A stretch of DNA of 17,497 nt from a virus (Duplodnaviria; Heunggongvirae; Uroviricota; Caudoviricetes). The translations under genes and the position numbers were made by a program. The notes beneath the pieces are model-generated. The model was not told the origin of the DNA. It did no database searches and saw nothing but the letters and a program-made list of their open reading frames with translations. Where the stretch lies: IMG/VR virus record IMGVR_UViG_2681813135_000005. The stretch is one strand, 5' to 3'. Below are positions 6,369-15,395 of this stretch, one piece after another; the first letter of the stretch is position 1; each line of letters opens with the position of its first letter.

Positions 6369-6665
6369 TTATACCTCTGAATCAATATCAACCTGGTGGT
6401 GAGCAATGGTTTCAACCATGTACCGGATGTGTTCTGCCATGCGCTCCTGAAACTCAACATCGTCATCAAACGCACGGGTAATGGCTTTTTTGCTGACCCC
6501 GTGGCGTTGCAAATGATCGATGCATAGCGATTCAAACAGGTGCTGGGGCAGGCCTTTTTCCATGTCGTCTGCCAGTTCTGCCTCTTTCTCTTCACGGGCG
6601 ATCTGCTGGTAGTGACGCGCCCAGCTCTGAGCCTCAAGACGATCCTGAATGTAATAAGCGTTCAT
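6369..6665 (-). CDS. gam: Lambda Gam (RecBCD inhibitor), short GamS form
   Basis: 98-aa [59 protein letters not shown]..., matching the C-terminal 98 residues of lambda Gam. The upstream in-frame sequence contains stop codons. Confidence 0.9.
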
Positions 6666-6740
6666 GGCTGAACTCCTGAAAATGGCTGTGAAAATATCGC
6701 CCGCGAAATGCCAGGCTGATTAGGAAAACAGGAAAGGGGA

Positions 6741-7031
6741 TTAGTGATTCAGGCCGTTACCGCGTCCGTCGAGAAAAACTTCTACGAGCAAATCACGGGT
6801 ATAAGTGCGCTCGATGCCGCGATGCAGATAAAGCCGTCCGCGTAAATTAGCTGATGCAGTCCAGGTACCATCTTTGTGTTTGACCAGCATTCCTGGCATG
6901 ACCGCACCGCGATTAACGGTCTGCGTTCCGTAATGTTGATGAACCATAAAAACTCCTGCCCGTAAGCTGGGCTGCTGAACATATAGAGACTTCTGCGCGT
7001 ATTCAGGCGGTGGATGGCCGCCGGTTGTCAT
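6741..7031 (-). CDS. Hypothetical early protein, first ORF of the leftward (pL-like) operon, in the kil/cIII position
   Basis: 96-aa reading from the ATG at 7031 ([20 protein letters not shown]...[15 protein letters not shown]) with GAGGCGG upstream. The ORF track extends it to a TTG at 7151 (136 aa); that extension carries an Arg-rich stretch RLRGVRGVKRTRERR. Function not recognised. Confidence 0.4.
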
Positions 7032-7151
7032 AACTAAGCCGCCTCGTTGAAGCGACTGAGGTATAAAGTGTTGTGTTGATTTCAGCTGGTCACACCGACG
7101 TTCACGCGTCCGTTTCACCCCTCGCACTCCCCGAAGCCTGCTGAAATTCAA

Positions 7152-7310
7152 ACTGCGGATCTAAGCGGTCATCGCAACGGTGAAACAGGTGGTTACCGTA
7201 TCGTTGTGTCGTTGCGATGAATTTAATTTAAAACTATAGTTGTTTTATCGTCAACAACAAAAGTTGTTTTGTCGGTTGTTTTAAATATAACTGGTTGTAT
7301 TTAGGATGGA
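7152..7310 (-). promoter_or_regulatory. Leftward early promoter (pL-like) with OL-like operator repeats and a structured 5' leader
   Basis: Minus-strand TTGACG (7254-7249), 17-nt spacer, TTAAAT (7231-7226). Repeated AACAAC/GTTGTT-containing sites (AAAACTATAGTTGTTTT, CAACAAAAGTTGTTTT, CGGTTGTTTT, CTGGTTGTATTT). 10-bp perfect inverted repeat CATCGCAACG...CGTTGCGATG (7170-7219) begins at the predicted transcript start. Confidence 0.5.
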
Positions 7311-7393
7311 TTTATTTTGTGACTTGCATCGCATAGCGATAACTGAAGTGAGGTGTGGTGGTTTTTTGGACGGTATGAGTTATGAGGGGGAGG

Positions 7394-7420
7394 AAAAGAA
7401 AACCCGGCGCGGTTGCCGGG
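7394..7420 (-). terminator. Intrinsic terminator after the immunity-region lipoprotein gene
   Basis: Top strand AAAAGAAAA-CCCGGC-GCGGTT-GCCGGG. On the minus strand this is a GC-rich stem followed by TTTTCTTTT, placed 9 nt after the lipoprotein stop codon. Confidence 0.7.
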
Positions 7421-7428
7421 TATGATTA

Positions 7429-7809
7429 TCAGTCAGCCCAACCTGATTTCGAGTTTATTTGGGTTTCTGACATTGTGTATTTCTTAATCGTGTCATCGTT
7501 AAAAAGAATAGTAAGTTCTTTTTTCGTACCGTTCGTTCCATTATGGAATAATCCATAGAATGGAATAAAAGTGGTGCCATTAACTTTTACTTTTGCAAAG
7601 GCGTACTTCCAGATCTCGTTTCCACTGTCAGTATATGAAACAGCATCAGGAGAACCAAAGTAAGATTTAACCTCATTCTTGGTTGTTTTACCTTCCTGAA
7701 GTTTAGACTGGACACTAATTTCAGTTTCATTTTTGAGTTGCTGGTTGCCTGAAGAAGCACACCCAGCCAATACAGATGCCATCATGGCAGCGATTAGGAT
7801 TTTTCTCAT
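7429..7809 (-). CDS. Phage-encoded lipoprotein (SmpA/OmlA/BamE-like motif) in the rexAB position
   Basis: 126-aa ORF with signal peptide and lipobox (MRKILIAAMMASVLAGC). Segment KNEVKSYFGSPDAVSYTDSGNEIWKY resembles the BamE/SmpA-OmlA fold motif. AT-rich. Lies between the repressor gene and OL with its own terminator. Confidence 0.75.
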   Translation of the reverse strand: MRKILIAAMMASVLAGCASSGNQQLKNETEISVQSKLQEGKTTKNEVKSYFGSPDAVSYTDSGNEIWKYAFAKVKVNGTTFIPFYGLFHNGTNGTKKELTILFNDDTIKKYTMSETQINSKSGWAD

Positions 7810-8038
7810 TTTATGTTTCCATTCATTATAATCAGAAACATCTTAACATAATGATTCGAAATAAAAACCGCTACGAGATAGGGGGACATTTTGCTGACAG
7901 TAGCAACAAATCTCAGCTAACAACGAGAATATTTACTGAAATATGCAAACAGATTTGGCGTTCTTATAGAGAATTTAGTGCAATATCTAATCCGAGTGGT
8001 ATAAACCTTAACCTTCGCTCCCTTAAGTCGTAGATAAA

Positions 8039-8728
8039 TTAACCATGCTTCCTGTACGTCTGCGGCATGCTTCCAATGACCTTACCGAATATGAACACCC
8101 GGTTCATCTCGTCTTTCTCGATCGGGTCCCACGGCGAGTAGCTCTTGTTATCAGAGATAACCAGCAGCTTATCCTTCATCATTTGAAGACGTTTTACATG
8201 GGCAGTGTCGTCGTACAGAAACGCATAGATGCCATCACCGTCGAAAGATTTAACAGTGATATCAACGAACAGCAGGTCACCTGGTTCGATCGTCCCTGAC
8301 ATGCTGTCACCTCGCACGTTAATGATGCGGATATTTTCCGCCTTCCTGCCATCGAACATGTGACGAGCATCGTCAAACGAGTACTCAACCGAGCGTAGAA
8401 CTTCTACAAACTCACGGTTGATTACACCTGGCCCGGCACTGACTTCTATATCAAGAACGTCAATTTTGAAGTATTTGGAATGGCTGACAGTTGATTGTAT
8501 TGGTTGCACTGTACTGTCTGACATATTTCCAACGCCAGAAGATAACCATTCTGCGCGCACACCCAAAGCGTTCGCGATCTCCACGATTTTAGTTGTTTGG
8601 TTAGCTTTCCCTGTTTCGATTTTCTGAATAGCAGCCTGGCTAACCCCGACCAAATCCCCAAGCGCCTTTTGTGTAAGGCCTCGCGCTAATCTGGCTTCTT
8701 TAAGTCTTTCTGAGAGTGTTGTTTTCAT
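8039..8728 (-). CDS. CI-type prophage repressor (N-terminal HTH, C-terminal LexA/S24-like autoproteolysis domain)
   Basis: 229-aa ORF. N-terminal HTH (LTQKALGDLVGVSQAAIQKIETGK); C-terminal S24-like region with NVRGDSMSGTIEPGDLLFVD and a downstream lysine (HVKRL). No SD before the ATG, consistent with a leaderless pRM-type transcript. Not lambda cI. Confidence 0.85.
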   Translation of the reverse strand: MKTTLSERLKEARLARGLTQKALGDLVGVSQAAIQKIETGKANQTTKIVEIANALGVRAEWLSSGVGNMSDSTVQPIQSTVSHSKYFKIDVLDIEVSAGPGVINREFVEVLRSVEYSFDDARHMFDGRKAENIRIINVRGDSMSGTIEPGDLLFVDITVKSFDGDGIYAFLYDDTAHVKRLQMMKDKLLVISDNKSYSPWDPIEKDEMNRVFIFGKVIGSMPQTYRKHG

Positions 8729-8832
8729 AGATCAAATGTACAACCAAGGTTTTATTTCATCAAACGAAAATGGTTGTTGACTAAAAACAACCATAGTTTT
8801 AATCTTTATTCGGATTAACCACGGAGGTTGTT
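8729..8832. promoter_or_regulatory. Divergent pRM/pR-like promoter region with OR-like operators
   Basis: Between divergent repressor and cro-like genes. Sites AAAATGGTTGTTGAC and AACAACCATAGTTTT (reverse complement AAAACTATGGTTGTT, one mismatch from the OL site AAAACTATAGTTGTT). Plus-strand TTGACT, 17-nt spacer, TTAATC, then GGAGG and the ATG at 8833. Confidence 0.55.
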
Positions 8833-9063
8833 ATGAACCCAGCAATCAAAACAGCGATCAATATCGTTGGTTCACAAAAGAAACTAGGCGATGCCTGCGA
8901 AGTTTCACAGCAGGCCGTCTATAAGTGGCTTCACAACAAAGCAAAGGTATCCCCTGAACATGTCGGCAGCATTGTTACGGCTACTGGTGGAGTTGTGAAG
9001 GCATACCAGATTCGCCCGGATCTTCCGAAGTTGTTTCCACACACCGAAAAGAACGCAGCTTAA
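8833..9063 (+). CDS. Cro-like HTH regulator (YdaS/Cro family)
   Basis: 76-aa ORF with SD GGAGG. HTH-like segment KKLGDACEVSQQAVYKWLHNK. Divergent from the repressor gene, in the cro position. Confidence 0.65.
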   Translation: MNPAIKTAINIVGSQKKLGDACEVSQQAVYKWLHNKAKVSPEHVGSIVTATGGVVKAYQIRPDLPKLFPHTEKNAA

Positions 9064-9132
9064 ATTTCCATTTCACGCTCTTTAACAATAAGCAATCAAC
9101 TTAACAGTCAATTCAAACTAAAGGAGTCAATT

Positions 9133-9672
9133 ATGCAACCACTTACATACCAACAGACTAGCGGATTTATTCCGACTGCGGTGATAAATCGTTCTCAAAC
9201 AAAACAAGCTCCAGGCCACGAAAAAATCCGTGATGCCGTCCGCGCCTGGTCGGCTGTAGATAATCAGGATGTCGTTGCCGCACTCATTGTGAATGAGTAT
9301 CGGGAGCAGGGCGACGGCACCATCGATTTCCCTGATGATGTCAGCCGTGCACGCCAGAAGCTGTTCCGCTTCCTCGATAACAAATTCGATTCTGAAAAAT
9401 ACCGAAATAACGTGCGTGAACTGACCCCGGCAATTCTGGCGGTACTACCGCTGGAATATCGCGGTTACCTGGTTGAGCAGGATAGCTTCATGACTCGGTT
9501 GGCTGAAATGGAAAAGGAACTCAGTGAGGCAAAACAGGCTGTCATTCTCAACGCACCACGCCACCAGAAACTGAAGGAAATGAGTGAAGGTATTGTGTCG
9601 ATGTTTCGTGTGGACCCGGATCTGGCTGGTCCATTAATGGCGATGGTGACCACCATGCTGGGGGCAATATGA
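9133..9672 (+). CDS. YdaT-like protein in the cII position
   Basis: 179-aa ORF with SD AAGGAG. Contains LTPAILAVLPLEYRGYL, which resembles what I recall of the Rac-prophage YdaT family. Sits between cro-like and O. Confidence 0.5.
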   Translation: MQPLTYQQTSGFIPTAVINRSQTKQAPGHEKIRDAVRAWSAVDNQDVVAALIVNEYREQGDGTIDFPDDVSRARQKLFRFLDNKFDSEKYRNNVRELTPAILAVLPLEYRGYLVEQDSFMTRLAEMEKELSEAKQAVILNAPRHQKLKEMSEGIVSMFRVDPDLAGPLMAMVTTMLGAI

Positions 9673-9758: not shown

Positions 9759-10688
9759 ATGGCAAACACTGCTGAGATATTCAATTTTCCAGTGCCGGAT
9801 GCGGCACAAAAGGAGCCGCGCGTGGCAGATCTCGATGATGGTTATACGCGCATTGCAAATGAGTTGCTGGAAGCTGTGATGCTGGCCGGATTAACACAGC
9901 ACCAGCTTCTGGTCTTCCTGGCTGTCATGCGCAAAACATATGGCTTTAATAAAAAACTGGATTGGGTGAGCAACGAGCAACTTTCCGAGTTGACCGGGAT
10001 ATTGCCGCACAAGTGTTCTGCTGCAAAAAGTGTTCTGGTAAAGCGTGGGATTTTTATTCAGAGCGGGCGGAATATCGGCATTAATAATGTGGTCAGTGAA
10101 TGGTCAACATTACCCGAATCAGGTAAGAAAAATAAAGTTTACCTGAAAGAGGTAAATTTACCTGAATCAGGTAAGAAAAGTTTACCCAAATCAGGTAAAG
10201 GCACTTACCCGAATCAGGTAAACACAAAATACAAACTAACAAAAGACAATATAAAACCTTTTTCGTCCGAGAATTCTGGCGAATCCTCTGACCAACCAGA
10301 AAACGATCTTCCTGTGGAGAAACCAGATGCTGCAATTCAGAGCGGCAGCAGGTGGGGGACAGCAGAAGACCTGACCGCCGCAGAGTGGATGTTTGACATG
10401 GTGAAGACCATCGCGCCATCAGCCAGAAAACCGAATTTTGCAGGGTGGGCTAACGATATCCGCCTGATGCGTGAACGTGACGGCCGTAACCACCGCGACA
10501 TGTGCGTGCTGTTCCGCTGGGCATGCCAGGACAACTTCTGGTCCGGTAACGTGCTAAGTCCGGCCAAACTCCGCGACAAGTGGACCCAACTCGAAATCAA
10601 CCGTAACAAGCAACAGGCTGGCGTGATAGCCGGAAAATCAAAACTCGACCTGACAAACACTGACTGGATTTACGGGGTGGATTTATGA
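9759..10688 (+). CDS. O: Replication initiator O (divergent N-terminal origin-binding domain, lambda-like C-terminal domain)
   Basis: Start at the ATG at 9759 (SD GGAGG at 9749-9753), giving MANTAEIFNFPVPDAAQKEPRVADLDDGYTRIANELLEAVMLAGLTQHQLLVFLAVMRKTYGFNKK..., which aligns with the lambda O N-terminus. The C-terminal half (...SSENSGESSDQPENDL...WMFDMVKTIAPSARKPNFAGWANDIRLMRERDG...) is lambda-like. Iterons lie inside the gene. The track's 9669 start is an unlikely extension. Confidence 0.9.
   Translation: MANTAEIFNFPVPDAAQKEPRVADLDDGYTRIANELLEAVMLAGLTQHQLLVFLAVMRKTYGFNKKLDWVSNEQLSELTGILPHKCSAAKSVLVKRGIFIQSGRNIGINNVVSEWSTLPESGKKNKVYLKEVNLPESGKKSLPKSGKGTYPNQVNTKYKLTKDNIKPFSSENSGESSDQPENDLPVEKPDAAIQSGSRWGTAEDLTAAEWMFDMVKTIAPSARKPNFAGWANDIRLMRERDGRNHRDMCVLFRWACQDNFWSGNVLSPAKLRDKWTQLEINRNKQQAGVIAGKSKLDLTNTDWIYGVDL
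10110..10262. repeat. Phage replication origin: five iterons plus AT-rich region inside O
   Basis: Iterons TTACCCGAATCAGGTAAG (10110), TTTACCTGAAAGAGGTAAA (10138), TTTACCTGAATCAGGTAAG (10157), TTTACCCAAATCAGGTAAA (10181), CTTACCCGAATCAGGTAAA (10204), each an inverted repeat TTACC...GGTAA. Followed by AT-rich CACAAAATACAAACTAACAAAAGACAATATAAAACC. Confidence 0.8.
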
Positions 10689-12005: not shown

Positions 12006-12033
12006 CAATAGCACTCATTTGTGAGTGCTATTG
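12006..12033. terminator. Hairpin between convergent cargo ORFs (putative bidirectional terminator)
   Basis: Perfect 12-bp inverted repeat CAATAGCACTCA-TTTG-TGAGTGCTATTG between the stop of the small plus-strand ORF (11989) and the stop of the 472-aa minus-strand ORF (12041). Followed on the plus strand by AAATTTATT. Confidence 0.5.
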
Positions 12034-12040
12034 AAATTTA

Positions 12041-13459
12041 TTAGAAAATAATGTTTGCTATATCCGAGATAGCATTTAAAGAACCTCTGTGGTCACTTCC
12101 TGTTTTAGGTAAAATATAGGAATATCGAGGGTCTTCATTATATGTTAACTTCCAGTGTTTTCCATCGCTTGACGCACTGAAACCTAAGTCCTTTAAATTT
12201 CTTTGTGTTGCGCTATCCATGCTTCTGTAACCTGTTAAAGTCCTTTTAAGTAATTGGCGGCGACTCTCGGTTTCTTTATTGTATTCATTATTGGCAATTA
12301 GGGATGATAAGATATGGTAGCTTCTACCAAATTCATTTTTATTTTTTATGGCAGTTTTTAGTGCGTCAATAATTATATTTTTGATTTCTCCATCAAAAAA
12401 ATCAGTCTCTTCACCAGCATTAAGCACAATGCTTCCTTGGGCTGAAGCTTGTGATTGAAGAGTGCGTACTCTGTGCTCTAAAGAGGAGATCTTATGCTTA
12501 AGATCTTCTATTTGGTCATCTTTCGCAACATTATCGGCTTCGTAAAGCGCCATCAGTTCGCGTGTGTATTCTCCTCTTTCTTTGAGTGAGTTAATAGAGT
12601 CTTTCGTTTTTCTGGTTTGTATCTCACTCCATCCACTATCTGAGACAGGAGCCATTGTAGTCGTAGCTCTTACAACATCATCAAATAACTCATCTTCAAA
12701 TTCTTTTGCGGTTTTCTCACCACGGCGATAAAAACTGATATTTTGACCCCGTGGCCAATAGATACCAACAGCACCAGCATAGGCATTTTTAGCATTTGTC
12801 TCATTTTTTAGCTTAATAGAAAATAGTCTATTGCTAGGCTCAATTAATACATGTGCTAATCCGCATACCTTTCTTGCAAGGCGTTCTGGGATGATATTGT
12901 GAGCATGTTCATTAAAAAAATACTTGGAGCTAACGTATATTATTGGTAGTCTGTTGTCAGTTTCACCATTTATAACTTTAGCTGCTATATTTAAATGTTC
13001 ATCAGTATCATCTAAGGAATGAGGTTCGACTGACACCTTGAAAATATCATCAAGACCACCAGAAAATTTATCAATCAATCTCATAACAACTAATGGTTTC
13101 TTAGGTTGCGGGGCTAGATAAGCTGCATCTTGGCTTACAACGCTAGATTCCACCTGAATCCACATGGTATCAGTTTTGAGATTTTTATTAATTGAAATAT
13201 CTGTTACCCATTTGTGTGGCTCAGATATTTTCGAATACCTAAAACAGCCTAAACTAGTATCTTTGTTTTTATAAGTTATTATATCAATTCTTTCATTTTT
13301 AGACTCTATGAAGTACTCCTCGCTTTTATAATCACATACTAATTGTGCTGGAATAAAAGTTGTATGTGGTGAGTCGTTTACCCAAGAAAAACATTCATTA
13401 AAGATCTCAGCTAGAGATGTGGAGTTTGAAACATAAAAACCAGTTGAGAAATATTTCAT
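12041..13459 (-). CDS. Large hypothetical protein (472 aa) of unrecognised family: cargo gene at the ren/ninB junction, candidate phage-defence or abortive-infection factor
   Basis: Uninterrupted 472-codon ORF with SD AAGGAA 5 nt before the ATG at 13459. Markedly AT-rich compared with flanking ren and ninB-like genes and transcribed against them. Central predicted coiled-coil (DDQIEDLKHKISSLEHRVRTLQSQASAQ) between an N-terminal region of about 290 aa and a C-terminal region of about 130 aa. No family recognised by eye. Confidence 0.8.
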   Translation of the reverse strand: MKYFSTGFYVSNSTSLAEIFNECFSWVNDSPHTTFIPAQLVCDYKSEEYFIESKNERIDIITYKNKDTSLGCFRYSKISEPHKWVTDISINKNLKTDTMWIQVESSVVSQDAAYLAPQPKKPLVVMRLIDKFSGGLDDIFKVSVEPHSLDDTDEHLNIAAKVINGETDNRLPIIYVSSKYFFNEHAHNIIPERLARKVCGLAHVLIEPSNRLFSIKLKNETNAKNAYAGAVGIYWPRGQNISFYRRGEKTAKEFEDELFDDVVRATTTMAPVSDSGWSEIQTRKTKDSINSLKERGEYTRELMALYEADNVAKDDQIEDLKHKISSLEHRVRTLQSQASAQGSIVLNAGEETDFFDGEIKNIIIDALKTAIKNKNEFGRSYHILSSLIANNEYNKETESRRQLLKRTLTGYRSMDSATQRNLKDLGFSASSDGKHWKLTYNEDPRYSYILPKTGSDHRGSLNAISDIANIIF

Positions 13460-15272: not shown

Positions 15273-15282
15273 ANNNNNNNNN
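15273..15282. other. Assembly gap (10 N) joining prophage sequence to an unrelated chromosomal locus
   Basis: Literal run of 10 n characters. Phage genes on the left, host REP/terminator/yidB on the right. Confidence 0.95.
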
Positions 15283-15318
15283 NAATCTTGCAATGTATTG
15301 AATTTTCATGATTTTGTA

Positions 15319-15349: not shown

Positions 15350-15366
15350 AAGAAGCTATAAGAAAA

Positions 15367-15395
15367 GGGCGGAGATCATCTCCGCCCTTTTTATT
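15367..15395 (+). terminator. Intrinsic terminator upstream of yidB (likely terminator of the preceding host gene, gyrB in E. coli K-12 order)
   Basis: GGGCGGAGAT-C-ATCTCCGCCC perfect stem followed by TTTTTATTT. Confidence 0.75.

Follow-up and report, generated by a model that had tools for sequence, protein, structure and literature searches.

Organization of the early-left region

The window analysed here, a stretch of 17,497 nucleotides, comes from a lambda-like prophage lacking an N gene and spans its early region. On its minus strand we find, in this order, a cI-like gene for a repressor of the S24-peptidase type (8039-8728), a gene for a lipoprotein-like product of 126 amino acids (7429-7809) with its own terminator (7421-7402), the early-left promoter pL, a leader of around 270 nt, and then kil, gam, bet and exo. 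Beyond exo, the same strand continues with small ORFs of the lambda type, a TraR-like gene, xis and int. The plus strand carries a cro gene of the YdaS type (8833-9063), a YdaT-type gene and O/P-like replication genes.

Read from the sequence, pL is a sigma-70 promoter on the minus strand (7254-7226) with the -35 element TTGACG at 7254-7249, a 17-nt spacer and the -10 element TTAAAT at 7231-7226. A promoter scan reports the same site with an 18-nt spacer (TTGACG/TAAATT). Based on this promoter, the predicted +1 of the transcript is A7218. Two operator-like repeats (OL; repeat families D1 and D3), AACTATAGTTGTTTTATCG and AACAAAAGTTGTTTTGTCG, occupy positions 7232-7250 and 7256-7274 and are spaced 24 bp apart; inverted copies are found at 8762-8811 (families D3, I1, I2 and I4), between the cI-like and the cro/YdaS-like genes. 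In sequence, pL is almost the same as the divergent pR region at 8770-8811 (families I1 and I2). Since the OL-type repeats recur in inverted orientation beside cro, we consider pL/OL a genuine counterpart of pR/OR. A preliminary description of this DNA had proposed a pL equivalent based on the promoter and the operator-like repeats; the promoter is present with the 17-nt spacing given there, and its operators are shared with pR.

The first real gene of the pL operon is kil (6741-6947, minus strand), which encodes a cell-division inhibitor of the Rac KilR type with 68 amino acids (PHROG 294, E = 1e-37). This is the typical length in the family of kil homologues Pfam PF27398 and also the length of distant Kil homologues, and PGAP annotates the same 68-amino-acid kil in O157:H7 EC4115. 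The gam gene (6665-6369, minus strand) comes after kil, so the order previously put forward downstream of pL, namely a gene in the position of kil followed by gam, bet and exo, is correct, with a Rac-type kil at its head. Further along, xis (2685-2467, minus strand, start codon at 2685; Pfam Exc) precedes int.

The pL transcript would thereby open with three non-coding RNA modules, all on the minus strand: a 5′-terminal hairpin that we call HP0 (7220-7169), a mid-leader element or MLE (7173-7080) and a structured motif upstream of kil (7064-7006).

A few other features of the window were recorded. A minus-strand ORF of 472 amino acids (12041-13459) lies between ren and the nin region, in the place of the annotated PD-lambda-1 defence gene of PhiR26_1, and looks like a defence moron within the pR operon. 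Three further inverted repeats, all perfect, have 12-13 bp and short loops; they lie just past the int stop at 1419 (1330-1365), just downstream of the stop of the 472-amino-acid ORF at 12041 (12006-12033) and in the nin region (15363-15391); they are likely terminators or binding sites. Finally, the late pR operon contains a run of 10 N (15274-15283), probably masked or unresolved bases.

Coding potential of the leader and search for nut signals

We aligned 90 unique leaders together with kil. Nucleotide diversity at the three codon positions of kil is 0.021, 0.024 and 0.090, the expected excess at third positions. The two candidate frames of the leader display no codon periodicity (0.039/0.027/0.047 and 0.026/0.013/0.023), and the leader carries frame-breaking indels of 1, 2 and 5 nt. 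A tblastn search with phage 21 N, HK022 Nun, lambda N and P22 gp24 gave a best E value of 0.17. The PGAP annotation of O157:H7 EC4115 calls nothing in the leader, and in PhiR26_1, whose leader is 99.5% identical, Q is annotated and no N is found among the 20 kb examined. The earlier statement that no N-like ORF follows pL is thus upheld, the leader having no codon signature and tblastn returning noise only.

One stretch of the leader nonetheless mimics an RNA-binding motif of the N type. Translated on the minus strand, positions 7032-7118 give the arginine-rich sequence KRTRERRCDQLK, and some records annotate a 'Kil' of 125 amino acids. The leader could accordingly be imagined to encode a small N-like arginine-rich protein that starts at GTG 7118, in frame with kil (MKRTRERRCDQLK..., with the stretch KRTRERR). 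The translation is similar to the arginine-rich motifs found in N of lambda and of P22, the annotated 125-amino-acid 'Kil' of PhiR26_1 starts at the position of this GTG, and 12 of the 90 variants have ATG there. Against such a protein, the frame is without codon periodicity and is disrupted by the 1- and 5-nt indels; variants replace Arg by Trp or by Cys, and one (L121) has an in-frame stop. Moreover, the GTG is the only candidate start in the leader and reads GTG-TAA in a second clade of leaders described below, while the 57-amino-acid extension is covered by no family match and distant Kil homologues keep to 68 amino acids. We regard this ORF as not coding and the idea as effectively refuted: the arginine-rich stretch is an artefact of CGN-rich RNA structure. 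Likewise, a poly-proline leader peptide, MTTGGHPPP at 7031, was discarded, for the peptide is not conserved in four loci (L154, L145, L150 and L387) while the RNA hairpin is kept.

The search for nut-like boxA and boxB motifs that the preliminary description had recommended found none in the pL leader, where neither a boxA, with up to 3 mismatches allowed, nor a boxB is present; the only perfect boxA lies on the pR side.

A hairpin at the predicted start of the transcript

HP0 begins at the predicted +1 and consists of an 11-bp perfect stem with a 30-nt loop. Its arms CATCGCAACG...CGTTGCGATG (7219-7170) had been described as a 10-bp inverted repeat enclosing 30 nt at the start of the transcript; the repeat is there, and pairing even extends to 11 bp (7220-7169). 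Structure prediction of the start of the leader, also proposed earlier and run here on an 83-nt stretch, gives -20.8 kcal/mol with z = -2.7. The rarity of the repeat was dropped as an argument: with 0.17 perfect inverted repeats of at least 11 bp and a loop of at most 40 nt expected per shuffled window, it is unremarkable. Two things lead us to judge HP0 real, its place at the predicted +1 and its retention in 113 of 120 related IMG/VR loci. Two promoter types are found upstream of HP0, and the stem begins at the predicted +1 under both. In most relatives the stem has 9 bp, the top pair being A-C there.

The loop of HP0 evolves about neutrally, with a diversity of 0.098 versus 0.090 at third codon positions of kil in the 90 aligned leaders. 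Inner base pairs predicted within the loop were rejected, as the majority variant does not preserve them. The shorter stem of most relatives, the unconserved inner pairs and the near-neutral loop speak against HP0 as a complex functional RNA. HP0 is missing from the second MLE clade, which has the rest of the element, and is replaced in relatives. Other N-less pL leaders of Enterobacteriaceae start with CAUC, with a hairpin a few nt later; some of these 5′ hairpins share with HP0 a CAAC/GUUG core, and the pairs on either side of it covary, as in GACAAC-N9-GUUGUC. A hairpin at the 5′ end is thus a recurring but simple feature of such leaders.

A stem-loop that begins at +1 is a classic mRNA-stabilising arrangement. 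HP0 is most likely an accessory 5′ stem-loop. It may shield the 5′ end of a long-lived leader RNA from decay that depends on the 5′ end; alternatively, it may insulate the fold of the MLE against upstream sequence.

A conserved mid-leader element

The MLE is a non-coding RNA of 94 nt that is found by nhmmer with E = 4e-31 and in a single copy in the window. Diversity in the 90 leaders is 0.038 at 7151-7056 (most of the MLE and the spacer after it), 0.019 at 7055-6995 and 0.023 at 6994-6948, which is near the level of non-synonymous sites of kil. We attribute these low values to the two structured modules in this part of the leader, the MLE and the kil-upstream motif.

A profile search of IMG/VR contigs uncovered the second MLE clade in 12 unique contexts with at least 7 different immunity regions. 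When nhmmer was run on all of the roughly 400 fetched loci, just these two clades were found and no third one. The RNAalifold consensus of 20 unique sequences consists of two abutting stem-loops on the minus strand, I at 7167-7123 and II at 7122-7084, with 99.1% of cells paired and 3 compensatory pairs, which may reflect very few evolutionary events given that the MLE is known in two clades. The covariation score is 0.153 compared to 0.082 in shuffles (0 of 500 as high) and at most 0.046 in slid controls. Single sequences fold no better than shuffled ones (z = 0.17 and -0.28), and an alternative long-range helix of AUUUCAGCAGG with CCAGCUGAAAU is equally well paired with wobble changes only; it might form a loop-to-tail pseudoknot. 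With ordinary single-sequence energies and a rival helix, the fold with two stem-loops is provisional.

The leader is widespread. The stretch 6990-7225, which includes the MLE, is present in 2227 of 5426 complete E. coli genomes, with O157:H7 EC4115, O104:H4 C227-11 and an ST131 strain among them, and the same leader occurs in isolated phages (4A7, Perceval, 1W, 3W and the PhiR series). The pR operon contains no second copy of HP0 or of the MLE that could be an analogue of putR or nutR. In the literature searched, which did not cover a 2011 survey of put-like RNAs, we found no account of lambdoid phages with antiterminator RNAs of another class.

We also noted that the 10-mer AATTCAAACT occurs on the plus strand both at 7145-7154 and at 9110-9119, just upstream of the ribosome-binding site of the YdaT-like gene. 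The pL leader RNA is thereby complementary to the pR transcript near this ribosome-binding site; the match may be due to chance.

Tests for membership in the put family and other RNA families

The preliminary description had raised the possibility of a protein-independent RNA antiterminator of the kind described for the put sites of HK022, with HP0 as the element. For comparison we rebuilt a put set from GenBank with HK022 putL and putR, HK639, CobraSix, PdC23, phiEt88, S9-5 and UPF_BP1; its residue numbering agrees with the cryo-EM paper (PMC9378689). A covariance model of these 8 put RNAs, run with filters off, has no match in 7220-6940 at E ≤ 10. The best score of the put model in the window is a weak match on the plus strand at 9791-9854 (13.8 bits, rough E = 0.04), which lies within the O-like gene, is without the put core and was set aside as probably due to chance. 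A regular expression for the core motif (GAACGGC ... GUCGG ... CAAU) recovers each of the 8 positive controls; it also matches 22 of 71 other loci, and it is absent from all 92 loci with this leader.

Accordingly, the proposed comparison with HK022 putL and putR is negative for both the covariance model and the core motif. HP0 does not hold up as a put site of the HK022 type, being a single stem with a near-neutral loop that has no put-model match and is absent from the second clade. The broader idea of RNA-based antitermination is retained in part: that the N-less leader may carry such an element has comparative support through the MLE, and HP0 as this element is not supported. As the MLE matches neither the put model nor the put core motif, we would class it as working like put rather than as a put.

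Rfam yields no match at gathering scores in the whole window and nothing relevant at E ≤ 10 over 6600-9300. The ops sequence of RfaH (GGCGGTAGnnTG) was likewise rejected, its sole near match in the leader (7006-7017) having 2 mismatches and lying on the template strand, with counts at chance level.

Replacement of putL and association with terminators

Leaders of the second clade open with the same first 60 nt or so as HK639. Two IMG/VR loci (L401 and L410) have the pL, the operators and the first ~60 nt of the HK639 leader, and then the MLE in the place of putL; the GenBank record of HK639 annotates the feature at this slot as a putL-like antiterminator RNA. In two loci, L328 and L404, the sequence returns to HK639 immediately 3′ of the MLE cassette. 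With the MLE in the place of putL between HK639-like flanks, the two are alternative cassettes for one slot. Such positional replacement suggests that the MLE and putL may be functionally equivalent.

These phages have a common layout: pL, put or MLE, genes, an intrinsic terminator, the kil-upstream motif and kil. Among 76 loci of that layout, 22 have put and 7 have the MLE.

In the window, the preliminary description had placed several intrinsic terminators between pL and xis, and we indeed find four, all on the minus strand. The first strong one (4245-4227; AGGGAGC-TAC-GGCTCCTT, then TTTTATTATT) has the same offset of ~2935 nt in every listed locus of the W type, the MLE type of this window. 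It is followed by two tandem terminators at 2960-2941 and 2929-2910 and by a fourth at 2735-2716, which ends 30 nt ahead of the xis start codon. The promoter scan shows no promoter-like site between this last terminator and xis.

We then compared the number of sense-strand intrinsic terminators within 5 kb downstream across operons. At least one is found in 96% of 46 W-type MLE operons, in 6 of 6 second-clade MLE operons and in 21 of 21 put operons, versus 6% of 78 N-less operons that have neither the MLE nor put (Fisher p = 2e-25, 1e-6 and 4e-17, respectively, values that overstate independence because the loci are related to one another). The N-less operons with neither element tend to have antisense terminators instead. 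The direction of the association between MLE or put and terminators is clear despite this kinship. For the W type, the recombination module is lambda-like, so that its terminators could simply be inherited.

The kil-upstream motif and other leader RNAs

The structured motif upstream of kil is composed of AUAC, a covarying hairpin HP1, UUAUGACAACC and a second hairpin HP2 (GGCGG-CCAUCCA-CCGCC). We found 68 unique variants across phages of Enterobacteriaceae, HK639 among them, with no match in Rfam. HP1 has compensatory changes at seven base pairs, and the motif is not coding. Judged by eye in the sequences inspected, an intrinsic terminator stands directly before the motif in most other phages; an automatic strict scan finds one in 20% of loci. 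HP2 is annotated as a terminator in the GenBank record of HK639. Since the motif travels with kil and is present in HK639, which bears put, it is unlikely to be an antiterminator and is probably specific for kil.

A different covarying leader RNA was observed between pL and kil in L138, L144, L157 and around 30 other N-less loci. It measures ~100 nt and has the form CCACC...GGCAGGACGCC-CACGAAGUAGC-CCGG...GGCAUACGAA...CCGG-AUGAGGUGG. Operons of this type have almost no sense-strand terminators.

A boxA on the pR side

On the plus strand, a perfect 13-nt boxA of the rrn type (CGCTCTTTAACAA) lies at 9076-9088, 13 nt past the stop of the cro/YdaS-like gene and in the position of nutR. No boxB-like hairpin follows it. 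The boxA is found in 42 of 95 related loci, and the pR operon may use an rrn-like antitermination that depends on Nus factors. In phage 4A7 (L003, 7225-7275), a boxA-like sequence TTGTTTAAC lies between cro and a cII-like gene and is followed 12 nt later by the hairpin GCCGC-CUAAUCU-GCGGC, the loop of which resembles phage 21 boxB (CUAACC). The portion of 4A7 examined has no annotated N gene.

Proposed mechanism and alternatives

From these comparisons we infer that the MLE, and not HP0, would be a cis-acting antiterminator RNA working like put of HK022 and HK639. As it emerges from RNA polymerase, the MLE would fold, probably into a pair of irregular stem-loops side by side, and would stay with the elongation complex. 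The complex would then pass the intrinsic terminators at 4245-4227, 2960-2910 and 2735-2716, and such read-through would allow expression of the distal genes, xis and int included. As the MLE has no put-model match, a put-like contact with the polymerase at the zinc-binding domain of beta′ would be pure analogy. A need for read-through is apparent from the four good terminators between pL and xis; xis and int might also be expressed by low-level read-through or from unrecognised promoters.

What carries this reading is the anatomy of the locus, a non-coding leader that is conserved and shows covariation, the exchange of putL for the MLE as a cassette and the link with downstream terminators. 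Based on this comparative support, we give a probability of about one half to a new RNA family that acts like put, represented by the MLE and with HP0 as an accessory. A more far-reaching version appears to us somewhat less likely than not, namely that the MLE founds another family of antiterminator RNAs, different from put in structure and independent of protein, which reprogram E. coli RNA polymerase in cis. The MLE would then be interchangeable with put as a cassette and would operate in the prophages that bear the leader.

An alternative with some weight, which we nevertheless hold to be unlikely, is that the leader governs kil, or how stable the early-left mRNA is, and that processive antitermination plays no part. 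HP0, the MLE and the kil-upstream motif would then influence how the toxic kil message decays, is processed or is translated, while the operon would end at its terminators and leave xis and int to leak-through or to other promoters. An operon that really terminates had also been considered in the preliminary description. Such an arrangement fits well with the genes nearest to pL, as kil, gam, bet and exo all precede the terminator at 4245-4227 and need no read-through. It also fits with the gene-specific look of the kil-upstream motif, which accompanies kil in many phages including HK639 with its put, with HP0 at the predicted +1 as expected for a stabiliser, and with the short, hairpin-first leaders of many other N-less pL-kil operons. 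However, it leaves unexplained why the MLE sits in the exact putL slot, upstream of other genes and ~0.7-1.9 kb from kil, and why it shares with put the association with terminators. Nor does it account easily for the strong terminator 30 nt ahead of xis with no promoter-like site in between.

The MLE or HP0 could instead be a nut-like loading site for an antiterminator that acts in trans, either a phage protein that has escaped recognition or the Nus factors of the host, as in rrn operons. Signals of the Nus-factor type do exist on the pR side, where the boxA at 9076-9088 recurs in 42 of the 95 related loci and relatives of the 4A7 type combine a boxA-like sequence with a boxB hairpin like that of phage 21. 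The pL leader itself, however, is without a boxA even at 3 mismatches, the window has one MLE copy with no similar element in the pR operon, and no N-like ORF was found. In addition, the leader is combined with a wide range of unrelated immunity and pR modules, which would confine a dedicated partner protein to a small shared segment in which none is seen. We therefore regard a loading site as improbable. Even less probable in our opinion is that the inverted repeat acts as DNA, as a protein-binding site or as a recombination junction between immunity and kil modules. Similarity between phages of different immunity does start at or within the repeat, and 7 of 120 loci have a junction inside the HP0 loop. 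Nevertheless, the substitutions commonly seen in the 5′ arm (C7219 to U and A7218 to G) keep G-U pairs only in RNA of the pL sense, other leader classes have hairpins of different sequence with compensatory changes at the same position, and the arms of HP0 are unlike the operators.

If the MLE acts as proposed, a second and unrelated put-like RNA would help to define which features of antiterminator RNAs are essential and would offer a new handle on the control of pausing and termination by nascent RNA. It would also explain how excision and recombination genes are expressed across terminators in very common N-less lambda-like prophages. Prophages with this leader are present in about 40-41% of complete E. 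coli genomes, major pathogen lineages included. The MLE is small and precisely delimited, and putL of HK639 offers a natural counterpart for swaps.

Comparison with known systems

The arrangement is close to the N/nut system of lambda in its operators and pL, its leader, the kil-gam-bet-exo order, the terminators ahead of xis-int and a boxA in the position of nutR. It differs in that there is no N gene here, the pL leader is without boxA and boxB, and the boxA of pR is without a boxB hairpin.

HP0 resembles 5′ stabilisers of the ompA type in that it begins at the predicted +1 and would leave no unpaired 5′ tail; in contrast, its loop is unusually long (30 nt) and its start site is a predicted one.

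To our knowledge, there are very few examples of processive antitermination by RNA only, the put family and the EAR RNA of Bacillus. EAR (eps-associated RNA) is a cis-acting leader RNA for terminator read-through in a long operon, like the proposed MLE. The organism and the sequence are unrelated, and Rfam gives no relevant match here even at E ≤ 10.

The put RNAs are the nearest comparison. They act in cis on terminators with no phage protein needed, and mutations in the zinc-binding domain of beta′ (rpoC), for example Y75N, block them. The MLE is without the invariant GAACGGC, GUCGG, GGAUGA and CAAU of put, and its stems differ in length and sequence. On the other hand, like put it belongs to a lambdoid phage without N and follows closely on the early-left promoter. 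Both are non-coding RNAs of 70-95 nt for which two adjoining irregular stem-loops are predicted, in the MLE provisionally. As a precedent for exchange between systems, put can serve the genes of lambda in the hybrid phage O276 (PMC6256539). Like the put of HK639, the MLE is present as a single copy in the left operon; it occupies the exact putL slot in leaders of the HK639 type, and sense-strand terminators lie downstream of both.
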